DNA of 64,000 nucleotides, taken from the sequence record PZ296772.1, one strand, 5' to 3'. Below, piece by piece: positions 3,078 through 64,000 of this stretch (its first letter is position 1; every line of letters begins with the position of its first letter). Under the pieces are notes generated by a model that saw only the letters and a list, made by a program, of their open reading frames with translations, did not search any database and was not told where the DNA came from. A program made the translations under genes and the position numbers. Source of the stretch: a phage.

Positions 3078-4186
3078 TAGAAAGTCCCCGCATAAAGTGA
3101 AGAACGGTTTAATGTAATAATTTCTCGCATTGTTATCTCTAACGTAAATGTTGATGGTAAGTTAGGAGCAACAGCAAGACCATTAAATTGTCCATTTGGA
3201 GTTTTATCAAAACGTACGCTTTGAATTTGACATGGGCCAAATACGTCAGTTAATCCATCAAATTTAGACGTATAACCAAAGTTTTTAACCATCCAAATTG
3301 TAGGGTTGCTTACAACTAATACATTTGTTAATGACGCAGTAATCTTTTCAAACAATGTCTTATTTTTTACTGCATCGTCTGGTGTCATAGGCTCAATAAA
3401 CGTTGAACGGTACCATTCGTCTAAATAACTTTTAATCTCTTGGGCGTACTGTGATTTACCGGTCTCACCATATGAGAAATAGTTAAAATACTGGTAAATG
3501 TTTATAATAGCCATAAGGTCTTCAGTTGAACGCGGAGTTAAATCCCATGTAAAGACTTTAGTACGGTTCTCAGCACCGCCATACATACTACGAGAAGTCG
3601 TATAAATCTGTTCGTTATTATCAGCCATAAGCCCTTGAGTAATAGAATCTAATGCACCAAAAACTGCAGTAGAAGCAATGTTACTTAAAACACCTGTAGC
3701 AGTACCTCCACCTTTAGTAATAAGACTATCACCGATATCATTAAAACGATGTGAAGTTGTATCAACGTCAGATTTGGAACGTGGCAAAAGTATATTAGCA
3801 ACAGGAGTTTTATTTATAGTAGGTTTATTAGCTCCGGCAGGAAGCAACCCATTAGAGAATTTAGTCACTGCATCTTTCACATTATCAGTTAAATCTGATA
3901 TGATACCGTTAGATGAAGTGCCGGCGTATGCCGGACGTAAATTCCTGAGGGATCCTGAATCGCGTGCAGACATATTGTACGCGGTAAATAATAATCCATT
4001 CTTATAAAGATCTGTTACCTGGAAGTCTCCTGTGGAGTCATTTCCGGCTGCTCTTCCTGTAGGAAATTGAGCAACATAAGTTTTAGTAGTTGTTTCGGTT
4101 TTAGTGCTTTGCCCAGCACTTTCTGAGACTGGGATTGCTTTATTTAAATCCTTTGCATCTACTACTATTTCTTTTACACTAATCAT
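3077..4186 (-). CDS. 48: baseplate tail-tube junction protein gp48
   Basis: 369 aa ORF in T4 position of gene 48 (T4 about 364 aa). Confidence 0.8.
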   Translation of the reverse strand: MISVKEIVVDAKDLNKAIPVSESAGQSTKTETTTKTYVAQFPTGRAAGNDSTGDFQVTDLYKNGLLFTAYNMSARDSGSLRNLRPAYAGTSSNGIISDLTDNVKDAVTKFSNGLLPAGANKPTINKTPVANILLPRSKSDVDTTSHRFNDIGDSLITKGGGTATGVLSNIASTAVFGALDSITQGLMADNNEQIYTTSRSMYGGAENRTKVFTWDLTPRSTEDLMAIINIYQYFNYFSYGETGKSQYAQEIKSYLDEWYRSTFIEPMTPDDAVKNKTLFEKITASLTNVLVVSNPTIWMVKNFGYTSKFDGLTDVFGPCQIQSVRFDKTPNGQFNGLAVAPNLPSTFTLEITMREIITLNRSSLYAGTF

Positions 4187-49506: not shown

Positions 49507-49540
49507 CATCCTATCAAATAAACAGCCTCAAGGAAATAAA

Positions 49541-49828
49541 ATGAAAACCTATAAAGAATTTATATCACCTGTTGCTAACGTTTCTACTCTGACCGAAGCA
49601 TCCCTTACTTCTGAAGTTATTAAAACAAATAAAGGACGTGAGGGTAAACCAATGATTAGTCTGGTTGACGGCGAAGAAGTAAAAGGTACTGTTTACTTAG
49701 GGGATGGATGGTCTGCTAAGAAAGATGGCGCTACTATTGTTATCTCTCCGGCTGAAGAGACTGCACTGTTTAAAGCTAAGCATATTTCTGTAGCTCAGCT
49801 TAAAATTATTGCAAAAACTCTTCTGTAA
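49541..49828 (+). CDS. internal (head-packaged) protein with capsid targeting sequence
   Basis: 95 aa; N-terminus MKTYKEFI; LTE cleavage-type motif; early promoter upstream; ipI locus position. Confidence 0.75.
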   Translation: MKTYKEFISPVANVSTLTEASLTSEVIKTNKGREGKPMISLVDGEEVKGTVYLGDGWSAKKDGATIVISPAEETALFKAKHISVAQLKIIAKTLL

Positions 49829-49893: not shown

Positions 49894-50157
49894 ATGAAAA
49901 CTTTCAACGAATTCATCTCAGAATCGTCTGGTGTGAAAATTAACAAAGCGGTCAATCAGGTTATTGTTGATATTCTTAATTTGTATAACATTGACTTAAC
50001 TCCGCATATCACGCTTGGTAACAAACGAAACTTTTTCATATTTGACACGTCTGAACTTGATGAAAATCAGTTCAATAACATTCAACGTTTTGCGAATGAT
50101 AAAGGTCTTCGACACGAGCCTGGTGGCTATAAAAAATACGCAATATATTTGAAATAA
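49894..50157 (+). CDS. internal protein-like with capsid targeting sequence
   Basis: ORF 49882..50157 trimmed to MKTFNEFISE; ISE after CTS; early promoter upstream. Confidence 0.65.
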   Translation: MKTFNEFISESSGVKINKAVNQVIVDILNLYNIDLTPHITLGNKRNFFIFDTSELDENQFNNIQRFANDKGLRHEPGGYKKYAIYLK

Positions 50158-59880: not shown

Positions 59881-60113
59881 GTATAGCAATTTACATTAAA
59901 TCAGAATCATGTGATTCTTATCTGTATTCCTATGATACCGGAACGTCAGAAGAGAAAATCAAAGAAGATTTAGAAAGCGACTTGGATATGTTCCGACCTA
60001 TTTCTGATTATATGGTCCAAATATCTGATAGTGAAAGTCCGTCAACAGAAACATGTGTTGAAATTATTATACGAGATATCTTTAAACAATCACGGGACCG
60101 AGATGATGAGTAA
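59877..60113 (+). CDS. hypothetical acidic protein
   Basis: ORF 59862..60113 trimmed to ATG overlapping upstream stop. Confidence 0.45.
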   Translation: MSIAIYIKSESCDSYLYSYDTGTSEEKIKEDLESDLDMFRPISDYMVQISDSESPSTETCVEIIIRDIFKQSRDRDDE

Positions 60114-60561
60114 GAAAAATAAAGTGAAAGAACTATCAGCCGGTATTATTTTCCTTACCGAAGATAAAGAATTATTCATGGGGCGTGTAACTGGTTCTCG
60201 TCCTAAAGGTTCTTTAGCTCATCGGTGGGATATTCCTAAAGGTCGTGTCGAGCCCGGTGAATCTCCTATCGAAGCCGCTATTCGTGAATGCGAAGAAGAA
60301 ACTGGGTTTACACAATATGACCCTGCCTTCCTGAAAGACCTAGGTGAACATCATTACTCAGACAATAAGAATATTCATCTGTTCCTATATACCATCCCTG
60401 TAGAGCACGAGCAATTCAGAAACAGTGTTTGTAATTCCTATCATACATTCCCAGATGGACGACAGATTCCTGAATTTGATGCATTCGCTTTAATTAAACC
60501 TTCTCAATGGGAATATGTAATGGGCAAATCATTATATAAGGTGCTCACTACCCTCTTATAA
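60106..60561 (+). CDS. nudE: Nudix hydrolase NudE (e.1)
   Basis: ORF 60031..60561 trimmed to 151 aa; Nudix box GRVEPGESPIEAAIRECEEETG; immediately upstream of e as in T4. Confidence 0.85.
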   Translation: MSKKNKVKELSAGIIFLTEDKELFMGRVTGSRPKGSLAHRWDIPKGRVEPGESPIEAAIRECEEETGFTQYDPAFLKDLGEHHYSDNKNIHLFLYTIPVEHEQFRNSVCNSYHTFPDGRQIPEFDAFALIKPSQWEYVMGKSLYKVLTTLL

Positions 60562-60568
60562 GTAATAA

Positions 60569-60594
60569 ATACCTCCTATAAACGTGGGAGGTAT
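60569..60594 (+). promoter_or_regulatory. RBS-sequestering hairpin upstream of gene e
   Basis: 8 bp stem ATACCTCC / GGAGGTAT; the 3-prime arm is the SD of e; loop contains TATAAACG. Confidence 0.6.
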
Positions 60595-60595
60595 T

Positions 60596-61084
60596 ATGAA
60601 TATATTTGAAATGCTTCGTAATGACGAAGGTCTTAGACTGACTTTATACAAAGACACTGAAGGCTTTTGGACTATTGGCATAGGCCATTTAGTAACAAAG
60701 AACCCGTCTTTAGCCGTAGCTAAAGCTGAACTTGACAGAATGATCGGTCGTAAATGCAACGGTACAATTACACTTGATGAGGCTGAAAAGCTATTTAATG
60801 AAGACGTTGATAAAGCCGTTCGCGGAGTCTTGGGTAATGCTAAACTTAAACCGGTATATGATTCTTTAGATGCGGTTCGTCGATGTGCATTGGTCAATAT
60901 GGTCTTCCAAATGGGTGTAGCAGGCGTCGCCGGTTTTACTAATTCTCTTCGTATGCTTCAACAGAAACGTTGGGACGAGGCGGCAGTAAATCTAGCCCAA
61001 TCTAAATGGTATCGTCAGACACCTAATCGCGCGAAACGCGTAATCTCAACATTTAAAACAGGAACTTGGAAAGCGTATATATGA
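60596..61084 (+). CDS. e: endolysin (T4 lysozyme)
   Basis: ORF 60584..61084 trimmed to MNIFEMLR; catalytic E11/D20/T26 conserved; matches remembered T4 lysozyme. Confidence 0.95.
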
Positions 61085-61362
61085 AAACATATAGTGAATT
61101 TTTATCAGAATCTATTCTTAGCGAAGCTACTGACACATTTGCAACTAAGCTAGGTGCAGCTTTGGTTGAAGCTGAAAGTCTATTAGCACGTATTTCTGAA
61201 CTTGCTAGTAAGATAGATACTCGCAAATTTGAGCGCACCAGTGATATCGTTAAGCTTGAAGCATTGTTGCGCATGTGTGATAAACCAGAAGAAATCGCTA
61301 AGAACGGTTCGCTGATGAAACAACGTCTTGAAAAATATATTTCAGGCGCTTCAGAAAAATAG
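61081..61362 (+). CDS. internal protein-like with capsid targeting sequence
   Basis: ORF 61066..61362 trimmed to [10 protein letters not shown]; ATG overlaps e stop. Confidence 0.65.
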
Positions 61363-61363
61363 T

Positions 61364-61393
61364 GTTTACTTCCTCCAAGGTCTTTGATACTAT
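61364..61393 (+). promoter_or_regulatory. early promoter for denV
   Basis: GTTTAC, 18 nt, TACTAT; GGAGG SD before denV ATG. Confidence 0.65.
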
Positions 61394-61420
61394 ACATTCA
61401 TCAACTACTTGGAGGAAATT

Positions 61421-61834
61421 ATGACTCGTATCAATTTAACACTTGTTTCTGAACTGGCCGACCAACATCTTATGGCTGAGTATCGTGAATTACCACGCGT
61501 ATTTGGTGCAGTCCGTAAACATGTCCAAAATGGTAAACGTGTAAAGGATTTTAAAATCTCTCCAACATTTATCTTAGGCACAGGTCACGTAACATTCTTT
61601 TACGACAAACTCGAATTTTTACGTTTACGTCAAATCGAGCTAATCGCTGAATGTTTGAAACGCGGTTTCAAAATAAAGGACACGACGGTCCAGGATATTT
61701 CCGACATACCTGCCGAATTTCGTAATAATTATGTCCCGTCCGAAGCGTCCATTGCGATAAGTCAAGCACGCTTAGATGAAAAAATTGCTCAACGTCCGAC
61801 TTGGTACAAATACTATGGTAAATCAATTTACTAA
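61421..61834 (+). CDS. denV: endonuclease V (pyrimidine dimer DNA glycosylase)
   Basis: ORF 61409..61834 trimmed to [29 protein letters not shown]; matches remembered T4 EndoV. Confidence 0.93.
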
Positions 61835-61840
61835 GGAAAA

Positions 61841-62101
61841 ATGAAAATGTATCAAGAATTTATCTTTGAAGCAGATGCCAAAGGTCCTAAATTTAAAGTT
61901 AAAGCTTTCATTGGTGATGCGGAAGACTTTGGCTCGTTAAAACGTAATGGATATTCTTTCTTAGGTGGCGATGGTAAAGAAATCAACACCTATGCAAAAC
62001 GTAGTGAAATTGCTTATGTTGTAGCAAGCCCTAAAGTAGACGTTGGCGATATTGGATATGATTTTAACAACTTCGGAATTATTTCTGGCGGTAAAGCTTA
62101 A
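61841..62101 (+). CDS. internal protein-like with capsid targeting sequence
   Basis: 86 aa; N-terminus MKMYQEFIFE; AAGGAAA SD. Confidence 0.6.
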   Translation: MKMYQEFIFEADAKGPKFKVKAFIGDAEDFGSLKRNGYSFLGGDGKEINTYAKRSEIAYVVASPKVDVGDIGYDFNNFGIISGGKA

Positions 62102-62104
62102 ACG

Positions 62105-62134
62105 GTTTACGCTTAAGTATTAATATGGTATAAT
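62105..62134 (+). promoter_or_regulatory. early promoter
   Basis: GTTTAC, 18 nt, TATAAT, then GCTCTATCAA. Confidence 0.65.
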
Positions 62135-62164
62135 TGCTCTATCAAAACAAACAAGGAAACAAAA

Positions 62165-62494
62165 ATGAAAACGTATAAAGAATTTATCACTGAAGTTACA
62201 TTATCTGCGGAACAGAAAGCTGCTATCGAAGAAGGTAAAAATCCCAAAGTAACATATAAAGTAAATAGTAAAGGCGTTTTTGATGGTTTGGTTCAAGACC
62301 CTGAATTGAAAAAAGCTCTTTCTAAAACTAATGCGTACTTTGCTCCTAAATTTAACACAGCCGGTGTACTTATTGGATTGGATGTATTCAACTCTAAAGG
62401 TGTTCTATCTAATGCCTTTGGTTATGCCGCTAACAAAATTACCAAAGCTGCATGGGAATCCAATACCAAACAAGCTCAAAAGCCTAGAGTATAA
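62165..62494 (+). CDS. internal protein-like with capsid targeting sequence
   Basis: 109 aa; N-terminus MKTYKEFITE; first 8 codons near-identical at nucleotide level to the 49541 gene. Confidence 0.65.
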   Translation: MKTYKEFITEVTLSAEQKAAIEEGKNPKVTYKVNSKGVFDGLVQDPELKKALSKTNAYFAPKFNTAGVLIGLDVFNSKGVLSNAFGYAANKITKAAWESNTKQAQKPRV

Positions 62495-62666
62495 TTCTTG
62501 CCTAATAAAGGGAAACGCAACCTCTCCTCATGAACGTCGAGTCCTCTGAGTGATGTACCTTTTCCAACCTGTAATAAGGCCGAGCGCAATGCGGTAATGG
62601 GTTTACATAGCGAGTCGAAGGACCTAACATGTGCCACGGAACGGCCCCAACCTTAAGAGAAACTAA

Positions 62667-63206
62667 ATGAGAACATTTTTAACCGGACCTTATCTATCCC
62701 TGATGAATGCTTTTACACACCATTCTGATGCTAGAGTAGAAGAAATTTGTAAGAACGGTTATGTCCCACCATTTGAAGACGTACTCAAGCAGTACTGTAC
62801 ACTTCGTTTAGACGGCGGCAGACAATCAGGTAAATCAATTGCTGTGACTAACTTTGCTGCTAATTGGCTGTATGATGGCGGAACAGTTATTGTTCTTTCT
62901 AATACTTCAGCTTATGCTAAAATTTCTGCCGGCAACATTGAAAAAGAATTTTCTCGTTATTCTAGCGACGATATTCGATTCCGTTTATTTACTGATTCTG
63001 TTCGTAGTTTTATTGGCAATGAAGGTTCTAAATTCCGTGGATTAACGCTTTCTCGTATTCTGTATATAATTGACGAGCCTATTAAAGCTCCTGATATGGA
63101 TAAGATTTACAATGTCCATATTAAAACAGTCCAACACTGTTGCAAAAGCAAATATTGCATCGGCGGTAATGCTCGTCCTCAATTTTTTGTGATTGGAATG
63201 CAATGA
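62667..63206 (+). CDS. hypothetical small P-loop NTPase
   Basis: 179 aa; Walker A GGRQSGKS and Walker B-like LYIIDEP. Confidence 0.55.
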   Translation: MRTFLTGPYLSLMNAFTHHSDARVEEICKNGYVPPFEDVLKQYCTLRLDGGRQSGKSIAVTNFAANWLYDGGTVIVLSNTSAYAKISAGNIEKEFSRYSSDDIRFRLFTDSVRSFIGNEGSKFRGLTLSRILYIIDEPIKAPDMDKIYNVHIKTVQHCCKSKYCIGGNARPQFFVIGMQ

Positions 63207-63511
63207 TGACCACTATTGAAGTTTTTGAATATTGTTATAACAGTCCAGTATGCAATAAAAGGGCTCTTGTAGAAAATTACGAGATTTACCATTTTAAACC
63301 TAAACGATACCGTTTGACTAAAGGACTGTTTGCAGGGCAGCAGGTTCTTTGTACTGCTCCTAATGCACGGTTGATGACTAGTATTCCGCATTTCAAAATG
63401 GAATTTATTGATGGGCCATTTAAGGGATTAATCACTCAAAGTTTAATGGCGTTTAATTCCGACCCGTTTTTGATTAAAGAAAAAACTTGGATAAATTTAT
63501 TTTCTAATTGA
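63203..63511 (+). CDS. hypothetical protein
   Basis: 102 aa ORF overlapping previous stop. Confidence 0.5.
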   Translation: MMTTIEVFEYCYNSPVCNKRALVENYEIYHFKPKRYRLTKGLFAGQQVLCTAPNARLMTSIPHFKMEFIDGPFKGLITQSLMAFNSDPFLIKEKTWINLFSN

Positions 63512-63517
63512 GGTTAT

Positions 63518-63880
63518 ATGAAAGCATATCAAATTCTTGAAGGTGCACATAAAGGCACTATTTATTTTGAAGACGGCACTCAAGCCCGGATTATTGTCTC
63601 TAAGACTTTTAAAGAAGACGCTATTGTAGACCCGGAAATTTTCTACGGTTTGATTGCCCGTGAAATTGAAATTGAACATCAACCTAAAGTTAAAATTGAA
63701 GGTGGTCAACACCTGAACGTTAATGTTCTGCGTCGTGAAACTCTGGAAGATGCAGTTAAGCATCCAGAAAAATATCCGCAGTTGACCATCCGTGTATCCG
63801 GTTATGCAGTTCGCTTTAACTCTCTGACTCCGGAACAGCAGCGCGACGTTATCGCTCGTACCTTTACTGAGAGTCTATAA
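63518..63880 (+). CDS. autonomous glycyl radical cofactor (GrcA/YfiD-like)
   Basis: 120 aa; glycyl radical motif RVSGYAV; C-terminal ~60 aa match remembered E. coli GrcA. Confidence 0.85.
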
Positions 63881-64000
63881 TAGCTAAATTGATTATAGAA
63901 GGGTCTGAAGATGTTTTAAAATGTTTTGCCGCCTGGTTTAGTTGCTCAGGCGAGCAATCATTCATTGAAGCATTTAGAATGGGTGATATTACTGGAAACT

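Follow-up and report, generated by a model that had tools for sequence, protein, structure and literature searches.

Internal-protein genes of an RB69-like T-even phage form a cassette array that was probably reshuffled by recombination at the Shine-Dalgarno, start codon, and targeting-sequence block

In T-even phages, two loci for internal proteins (IPs) are reportedly polymorphic, with a conserved leader and with flanking homologies that were proposed to mediate shuffling, as set out in the abstract of Repoila, Tetart, Bouet, and Krisch (1994, EMBO J 13:4181). Where the same group later summarised that work, the flanks are early-promoter/stem-loop sequences of ~70 bp, given without a detailed mechanism (PMC2839356, PMC4122927), and more than 30 IP variants are counted (Comeau et al. 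2007, as cited in PMC2839356). The T4 proteins Ip1, Ip2, and Ip3 each block a different GmrSD variant restriction enzyme (PMC12373910); Petrov 2010 contains nothing on the IP loci. Could the codons of the capsid targeting sequence (CTS), with which the IP genes open, themselves serve as the site at which such genes are exchanged? We address this question for a 64,000-nucleotide stretch of phage DNA (sequence record PZ296772.1; the window, below), in which three IP-like genes, here called A, B, and C, lie together with the endonuclease gene denV between the lysozyme gene e and vs.8. The best explanation of the whole, and in our judgment a probable one, is a cassette array reshuffled by homology-based recombination at a block made of the Shine-Dalgarno (SD) sequence, the ATG, and the CTS, with gene C as one of the products.

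Like the T-even IP loci as they are summarised from Repoila 1994 and Comeau 2007, the window has two hypervariable loci with a conserved leader of ~11 amino acids and with open reading frames (ORFs) of variable number, order, and identity, whose proteins are thought to be injected anti-restriction factors. Unlike the Repoila proposal, as far as its abstract and the papers citing it describe it, the junctions lie in SD-ATG-CTS, one of them within a 5-nt coding interval, and each spacer goes with the cassette upstream of it. The array also resembles the PeSL (early promoter and stem-loop) cassettes of RB49/phi1-type phages, which are small non-essential ORFs in hyperplastic regions, exchanged by recombination at short conserved flanking repeats, and which on deletion are expected to come out as mini-circles containing a chimeric repeat (Arbiol et al. 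2010, PMC2839356; Comeau et al. 2014, PMC4122927). As in that system, ORFs are present or absent among close relatives with breakpoints in a shared repeat, here SD-ATG-CTS. However, the PeSL repeat is intergenic (a sigma-70-like promoter plus a GC-rich stem-loop), whereas the repeat here is mostly coding, so that an exchange is an in-frame N-terminal fusion. Nor did the window array have a conserved early promoter and stem-loop on both sides of every mobile ORF: a promoter with an inverted repeat precedes denV only, a promoter without an inverted repeat precedes C, and nothing comparable precedes A, which overlaps e, or B, which starts 6 nt after denV.

Two further comparisons are useful. By analogy only, the locus can be likened to integron gene-cassette arrays, in that promoter-poor, swappable accessory genes with likely roles in defence or counter-defence lie between fixed anchors; unlike integrons, it has no site-specific recombinase and no attC-type site, and their place would be taken by general recombination, homologous or through microhomology, at a sequence that is translated. 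The T4 locus e-ipIII-ipII-denV-vs.8 has the same anchors, e and vs.8, and the same denV unit with its promoter and SD-masking hairpin, and ipIII-like and ipII-like cassettes occur in Mosigvirus relatives of the window. On the other hand, T4 is without cassettes A and B, and its denV follows ipII.

Megablast with positions 60000–64000 matched 868 phage records, the best being the Mosigvirus genomes RB69, PTK, NHEP11, and KMB38 (96.5–98.1% identity), and the stretch is the ipII/ipIII-equivalent hypervariable IP locus of an RB69-like (Mosigvirus) T-even phage. The gene map, drawn from the ORF list, the sequence, and the annotations of RB69 and NHEP11, gives the order e, A, denV, B, C, vs.8 in the direction of transcription, and the annotations of RB69, NHEP11, and PTK read e, IP, denV, IPs, vs.8. 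Of the two IP loci, genes A, B, and C occupy the one between e and vs.8; the other, locus 1, extends from 57B to the tRNA region. All three open with a CTS close to MKTYQEFIAE (MKMYQEFIFE in B and MKTYKEFITE in C) and carry an (L/I)-x-E motif at residues 8–10 (LSE in A, IFE in B, and ITE in C). Such a motif at the end of the CTS is the cut site of the T4 prohead protease (gp21), and the CTS with its cleavage motif is intact in all three genes. At the nucleotide level, the 23-mer ATGAAAACNTATAAAGAATTTAT occurs in four copies (49541, 61081, 61841, and 62165) at ≤3 mismatches, where chance would give 0.02. Two of them, at 49541 and 62165, fit it without mismatch and differ from each other at the N position alone (22/23 identical), which bears out the near-identity of these two gene starts reported in the preliminary description; position 49894 is the start of a fifth CTS gene, which has diverged further.

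Gene A matches phrog_3499, "internal head protein" (E = 3.5e-46), and gene B phrog_2667, also "internal head protein" (E = 6e-20), whereas gene C is in its own family, phrog_3966, without assigned function, and weakly matches phrog_2667 through the CTS only. A separate observation concerns the RB69 copy of gene A, RB69ORF127c (AY303349, locus positions 2494–2540), which carries a compensated −1/+1 frameshift within the CTS and reads MKTYMNFYQNLSLNEA, the CTS of gene A being MKTY(S/N)EFLSESIL in all 19 other relatives. Either the 2003 record contains a sequencing error here or targeting has really been lost.

CTS ORFs were extracted from 21 related loci: the window, RB69, NHEP10, NHEP11, NHEP36, PTK, PNJ-6, Lv5cm, SF, typing phage 13, phi25-307, phage 55, FL23, G2469, W143, JS09, mobillu, 308Ecol101PP, two IMG/VR contigs, and T4. 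Clustering of the mature parts gave six families, namely A, B, C, Ip10-like (RB69ORF124c, F5), ipIII-like, and ipII-like. Downstream of denV, these families are combined in at least 12 arrangements (B-C; B-Ip10-C; B-ipIII; B-ipIII-C; B-ipII-C; ipII-C; C only; B only; B-Ip10-ipIII-ipII-C; B-ipIII-ipII; B-Ip10-ipIII-ipII; and B-Ip10-ipII-denV′), so the synteny comparison suggested in the preliminary description revealed no uniform content among the relatives. Gene A kept a constant upstream context in 19/19 Mosigvirus-type loci, and gene B followed denV in 15 loci.

When the spacers were classed by the 37-nt stretch between −45 and −9 relative to each ATG, the class tracked the upstream gene and not the downstream gene. 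The gene B spacer (class S2) preceded C four times, the Ip10-like gene five times, the ipIII-like gene four times, and the ipII-like gene three times, and the gene C body was found behind 8 different spacer classes. In the window, the gene B spacer holds the best promoter match of the region, of the early type (10/12; −35 GTTTAC at 62105–62110 and TG-extended −10 TATAAT at 62129–62134). Since spacers are linked to the upstream body, each cassette comprises a body together with the 3′ spacer that belongs to it, and every changeover that could be placed falls between −8 and +30 of the ATG. The sequence shared between cassettes is limited to the SD, the ATG, and the 30-nt CTS block, and every junction between two intact cassettes lay within this SD-CTS block. 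In typing phage 13, denV is joined to C inside the SD (aggaa/caaaATG, the slash marking the joint). The ipII-like gene of FL23 has a mixed CTS with a patchy pattern, to which we give little weight.

The junction in front of gene C could be mapped most finely. RB69 and PTK have an additional Ip10-like gene between B and C. Compared with PTK, the window has 0 mismatches at 61835–62164, counted from the denV stop; positions 62165–62187 equal the first 23 nt of the PTK Ip10-like (F5) gene, and positions 62183–62700 equal PTK gene C (F7) except for one base, 62580. Within the CTS, only two differences from PTK gene C were found (62177 and 62182), and both are Ip10-type bases. The Ip10-like and C CTS blocks of PTK are 25/30 identical, with a 15-nt perfect run. 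As far as its sequence goes, the window is the exact product expected from CTS × CTS recombination in a PTK-like parent, with 340 bp lost and the crossover in TTTAT at 62183–62187. Two independent mutations that happened to match the neighbouring cassette would be very unlikely (estimated at ~1e-4 or less) because there is only 1 mismatch in ~850 flanking bases.

The hybrid junction was absent from all records among the 50,697 phage genomes searched, and the gene C allele of the window is unique among phage records. The best single-piece matches across the junction were 308Ecol101PP, AV111, and JQD51, at 96.9% identity because their CTS is wholly C-type. The B-C arrangement with a fully C-type CTS was found in this group and in NHEP10 and NHEP11, whose left-flank single-nucleotide polymorphisms differ from those of the window; the B-C junction of the 308Ecol101PP group is therefore independent and is located upstream of CTS nt 13.

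Breaks of homology were then located in a sample spread across the 380 records that match 61835–62700, as a breakpoint search at the CTS block had been proposed. Homology ended at 62187, 62188, or 62195 in at least 10 sampled records and began at 62153–62161 in three. At locus 1, the homology of several records ended at 49561–49563, the end of the 23-nt block, and that of one record at 49925, the CTS end of the 49894 gene; Klebsiella phages matched only 49530–49563 there. Together with the hybrid CTS of gene C, these breaks support the earlier suggestion that the CTS codons may act as a recombination module, and the contrary outcome, close relatives uniform in order and unbroken at the CTS codons, did not turn up.

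The array is thus built of head-to-tail cassettes, each with a variable mature-protein body and its own 3′ spacer, which gives the next gene its ribosome-binding site and sometimes an early promoter. Each cassette opens with ~40 shared nucleotides, comprising the SD, the ATG, and the 30-nt CTS (MKTYxEF(I/L)xE). We propose that, because this block is their only shared sequence, cassettes would pair at SD-ATG-CTS in the homologous or short-homology recombination of the phage. Recombination there would delete, insert, or swap cassettes in frame, and the products would keep a functional targeting peptide. Gene C probably arose in this way: a crossover between two targeting sequences, that of an Ip10-like cassette still present in PTK and RB69 and that of gene C itself, removed the Ip10-like cassette. 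SD-ATG-CTS is the longest homology among the otherwise unrelated cassettes and the sole one that gives in-frame, targetable products. In T4, the starts of ipIII and ipII lie 697 bp apart and repeat each other perfectly over 47 nt in direct orientation. Segments between microhomologies of 6–10 bp are known to be deleted or amplified in this phage, and ipIII was lost in 3/5 evolved populations (PMC9391042). The 0.7-kb lower bound of the T4 deletions in that study would fit a 697-bp deletion from CTS to CTS at ipIII.

Several points weigh against this proposal. The evidence for recombination at the CTS is comparative throughout, and on such data the CTS may be either a preferred site or merely one that selection retains. 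Most junctions can be resolved no finer than the SD-CTS block. Other deletions in the locus lie at the unrelated microhomologies GGGTAAA, TAACA, and GGTAAAG, the last of which is where phage SF lost its gene B; recombination therefore also uses sites other than the CTS. In the loci sampled, no cassette exchange between the two IP loci was found despite the near-identity of the 62165 and 49541 CTS blocks, and the lone match of the inter-locus search was Av-05, a 121-kb genome with a large deletion. The conservation of the CTS at the nucleotide level is largely explained by a conserved peptide and A/T-rich codon choice, and the packaging of proteins A, B, and C in the capsid is itself presumed.

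As to Av-05 (NC_025830, 120,938 nt; locus positions 652–915), its homologue of the 49894 gene lies ~2 kb upstream of nudE, compared with ~10 kb in the window. This spacing would reflect a large deletion or an incomplete assembly, since the genome is ~48 kb shorter than its relatives.

Selection alone could in principle produce the same picture: if cassettes were joined at random short repeats, the CTS would appear as a breakpoint because retained recombinants need an intact, in-frame targeting peptide. The deletions outside the CTS fit such a filter (a second denV was eroded at GGGTAAA or TAACA, and SF lost gene B at GGTAAAG), as does the general use of 6–10 bp microhomologies by T4 (PMC9391042). 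However, the IP genes are non-essential, and out-of-frame or truncated products are tolerated and were seen (gene B of 38 aa in JS09 and of 61 aa in FL23). Despite these tolerated truncations, each junction that joins two intact cassettes is confined to the SD-CTS block, which is also the longest homology on offer (the 15-nt perfect run and 25/30 identity in PTK, and 47 perfect nt in T4). We therefore regard a selection filter by itself as unlikely, and homology-driven recombination would be the maker of the junctions.

It is quite improbable that the recombination sites are the flanking early-promoter/stem-loop sequences, that is, the ~70-bp elements of Repoila or analogues of PeSL, rather than the CTS codons. 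Flank-mediated shuffling was proposed by Repoila et al. 1994 and Arbiol et al. 2010, to go by the accounts in PMC2839356 and PMC4122927, and candidate elements do exist in the window, in the form of the promoter and inverted repeat before denV and the promoter before gene C. However, the spacers vary among cassettes and travel with the upstream body, no promoter-like sequence is found in the spacers after the Ip10-like and ipIII-like bodies, and the mapped crossover of the window lies 18–22 nt inside the coding sequence.

The position of denV needs separate treatment. The preliminary description had noted that denV is embedded among IP genes in an order unlike that of T4, and had given the T4 map order correctly as denV-ipII-ipIII-e. 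Read in the direction of transcription, this is e, ipIII, ipII, denV, vs.8, and the order of the window does differ from it. However, a denV placed between IP genes is the norm in Mosigvirus and in most other T-even genera. In every Mosigvirus locus examined, e, A, and denV were present, with the order e, A, denV, B constant, and representatives of Dhakavirus and Kanagawavirus read e, IP, denV, IP, vs.8. In a survey of 33 T-even-type IMG/VR loci centred on denV, CTS genes flanked denV on both sides in 20, lay upstream only (as in T4) in 8 and downstream only in 4, and were absent beside it in 1. T4 thus has the minority arrangement, and denV between IP genes is, from these comparisons of gene order, the lineage-typical Mosigvirus state and not a local rearrangement.

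The denV gene has its own early-type promoter, as had been described (−35 GTTTAC at 61364–61369, an 18-nt spacer, and −10 TACTAT at 61388–61393). A 10-bp inverted repeat (61370–61379/61408–61417; −18.5 kcal/mol, z = −3.06) overlaps this promoter and pairs with the denV SD. The ribosome-binding site should consequently be exposed only in transcripts from the denV promoter and be hidden in read-through RNA, as predicted from the fold. T4 has a homologous promoter/hairpin module after ipII, in which the stem sequences differ and the complementarity is kept through compensatory changes. The DenV protein is 92% identical to that of T4 over 137 aa, its full length, and has a homologue in 1120 phage records. 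With its early promoter and SD-masking hairpin, denV forms a self-contained unit within the IP array, placed after the first IP gene in RB69-type genomes and after ipII in T4.

Nested remnants of a second denV occur downstream of ipII-like cassettes in Mosigvirus and in Tequatrovirus W143, and the hybrids JS09, SF, and W143 have both denV positions, with the downstream copy decayed. The nesting indicates that a T4-type ipII-denV block, with the element downstream of it, entered an RB69-type array in which a denV was already present. The redundant copy then decayed, and the T4 and RB69 orders are best taken as alternative placements of one denV unit, of which hybrids exist. It is scarcely credible that denV moved into the array of this lineage by transposition or with the help of a homing endonuclease: although denV is a self-contained promoter-hairpin-gene unit with two known positions, the order e, A, denV, B does not vary among Mosigvirus loci, is frequent in Dhakavirus, Kanagawavirus, and further genera, and is therefore old and not a change in this genome, the mosaic genomes with a decayed second denV after ipII point to import of the whole ipII-denV block and not of denV alone, and no endonuclease gene lies within 60–64 kb. 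In FL23 (locus positions 2361–2692), denV appears truncated (a 150-nt ORF) and gene B is truncated (61 aa), so that denV itself can drop out of the array.

The right end of the array is marked by a conserved feature. The 172-nt spacer before vs.8 is better conserved than its neighbours: in comparisons with Klebsiella, Dhakavirus, Krischvirus-type, and other phages it reaches 80–87% nucleotide identity, and the vs.8 proteins of these phages only 36–46%. An alignment of 23 sequences gave nested helices at 62507–62511/62558–62562, 62520–62533/62545–62556, and 62567–62570/62577–62580, and a 3-bp pseudoknot at 62516–62518/62610–62612 with four covarying variants (CGC/GCG, CCG/CGG, CAC/GUG, and CCA/UGG). 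In this alignment, 97.7% of cells were paired and the covariation score was 0.177 compared with 0.048 in shuffles, 0/500 of which reached it; slid controls showed no compensatory changes. A covariance model found a single copy in the window (62500–62641, 152.5 bits) and, in those of the searched T-even loci that gave a match, T4 among them, one copy each; distant T4-like phages yielded no significant match. A pattern scan of IMG/VR returned 22 contigs (21 of 144–178 kb, and the 121-kb Av-05 genome), and the scan of 185,579 bacterial and archaeal genomes returned 0 matches, so that the element has no detectable host origin. Rfam gave no match at the gathering threshold over the whole window, and a permissive scan of 62480–62700 gave only chance-level E values of 4–7. 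The 3′ part contains an early-promoter-like sequence, GGTTTACAT-17-TAACAT, at 62602–62630. Judging by conservation and covariation, 62500–62641 is apparently a conserved, structured, pseudoknotted RNA-like element.

Other interpretations of this spacer were rejected. Single-sequence folding suggested an unstructured spacer (z = +2.26 on the plus and +1.39 on the minus strand), which was overturned by the covariation. A coding spacer has stops in all three frames of the window, and the in-frame vs.8 "N-terminal extension" of T4 is not kept as an ORF elsewhere. A 7-codon reading, ATGAAC...TGA, is not retained in other genera, and the G-U pairs of the plus strand speak against the ORFs that some records annotate on the minus strand.

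In T4, the element overlaps approximately the first 40 annotated codons of vs.8 (NC_000866, ~64825–64945; locus positions 3326–3446), and the conserved vs.8 protein begins MRTFLTGPYL. Because the ~40-codon N-terminus is not conserved as an ORF and the conserved protein starts at this point, the annotated start of T4 vs.8 is probably wrong. Our literature search on vs.8 found nothing relevant. An upstream ATG at 62629 opens a 13-codon ORF (MCHGTAPTLRETK; window 62629–62669) whose stop codon overlaps the start of vs.8 (ATGA). The equivalent ATG is in frame with vs.8 in PNJ-6 and in several other genera; an alternative vs.8 start or coupling through an upstream ORF is possible. The first 12 nt of vs.8 (ATGAGAACATTT) are similar to the CTS start (ATGAAAACATAT), and in NHEP36, SF, and phi25-307 the F7 cassette occupies the place expected for the vs.8 start.

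Codon choice within the CTS was surveyed in 101 related sequences. Compared with genome-wide usage, Lys2 was AAA in 100/100 (73% genome-wide), Tyr4 was TAT in 90/98 (69%), Phe7 was TTT in 97/99 (56%), and Ile8 was ATC in 47/79 (25%), whereas the third positions of Thr3 and Glu6 matched genome-wide usage. This bias can at most suggest concerted evolution because related sequences were counted and because constraints of their own act on the 5′ ends of genes. The preference for AAA, TAT, and TTT points to a bolder reading, conceivable but doubtful, in which the array would be an integron-like one of anti-defence cassettes, with SD-ATG-CTS as its maintained and translated "attachment site" and the synonymous sites of that block kept uniform by concerted evolution. 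The 62500–62641 element would then be the fixed right boundary or insulator, and a new phage RNA family that is also present in T4 under the annotated vs.8 start.

The features of the locus are collected in Table 1. The hairpin before e carries GGGAGGU within its 3′ arm and a TATAAA-like sequence within its loop; it is the known T4-type early/late translational control of lysozyme, conserved in the window. The start codon of gene A overlaps the e stop as ATGA. At locus 1, the 49541 gene is the ipI orthologue, with 78% nucleotide identity to T4 ipI. Downstream of the array, vs.6 encodes a GrcA/YfiD-like autonomous glycyl-radical cofactor with the motif RVSGYAVRF, as annotated in the relatives, and Lv5cm has a partial duplicate of it.

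Table 1. Coordinates of the features of the e to vs.8 region, of locus 1, and of the second denV copies in related loci (window positions unless stated).
Feature	Position	Strand	Remarks
nudE	60103–60561	+	gene map
hairpin masking the e SD	60568–60595	+	12-bp stem, −16.3 kcal/mol, z = −3.29
e, lysozyme	60596–61084	+	99% aa identity to RB69 e, 82% to T4 e; left conserved anchor
IP-like gene A	61081–61362	+	family F1 = RB69ORF127c; CTS codons 61081–61110
denV regulatory module	61364–61417	+	early promoter overlapping inverted repeat
denV, endonuclease V (pyrimidine-dimer glycosylase)	61421–61834	+	99% aa identity to RB69 DenV, 92% to T4 DenV
IP-like gene B	61841–62101	+	family F3 = RB69ORF125c; CTS codons 61841–61870
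gene B 3′ spacer	62102–62164	+	early promoter and SD sequence
IP-like gene C	62165–62494	+	family F7, RB69ORF123c body; hybrid CTS 62165–62194
crossover interval TTTAT, CTS codons 7–8	62183–62187	+	comparison with PTK
ORF-free spacer, 172 nt	62495–62666		between gene C and vs.8
structured RNA-like element (apparent)	62500–62641	+	right boundary of array; covariance model
vs.8	62667–63206	+	right conserved anchor
vs.7	63203–63511		gene map
grcA-like vs.6	63518–63880		gene map
IPI-type internal protein gene, locus 1	49541–49828	+	phrog_4363
second IP-like gene, locus 1 (MKTFNEFISE...)	49894–50157	+	phrog_7673
second denV remnant, JS09	JS09 locus positions 3879–4016		~130 nt of 5′ end plus 3′ end
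second denV, SF and W143			remnant smaller than that of JS09
second denV, G2469, FL23, PNJ-6, and phi25-307			gone between GGGTAAA repeats
second denV, NHEP36			gone at TAACA repeat

The plasticity of the locus and the idea of shuffling are thirty years old, and our results overturn nothing and introduce no new principle. The contribution is one of detail: the spacers are owned by the upstream cassette, the junctions fall in a translated block, one of them is mapped to 5 nt, and the resulting allele is unique. The unannotated structured element beside the array is the part likeliest to repay more work. Internal proteins enter the host together with the injected phage DNA. Since at least Ip1–Ip3 of T4 disarm different GmrSD-type enzymes, the content of the IP array helps to set the host range. 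Should in-frame exchange take place at the targeting codons, a new body would automatically gain packaging and injection. This would explain the fast reshuffling of the IP repertoire in T-even phages, therapeutic candidates included, and would provide a simple engineering rule for payload swaps.

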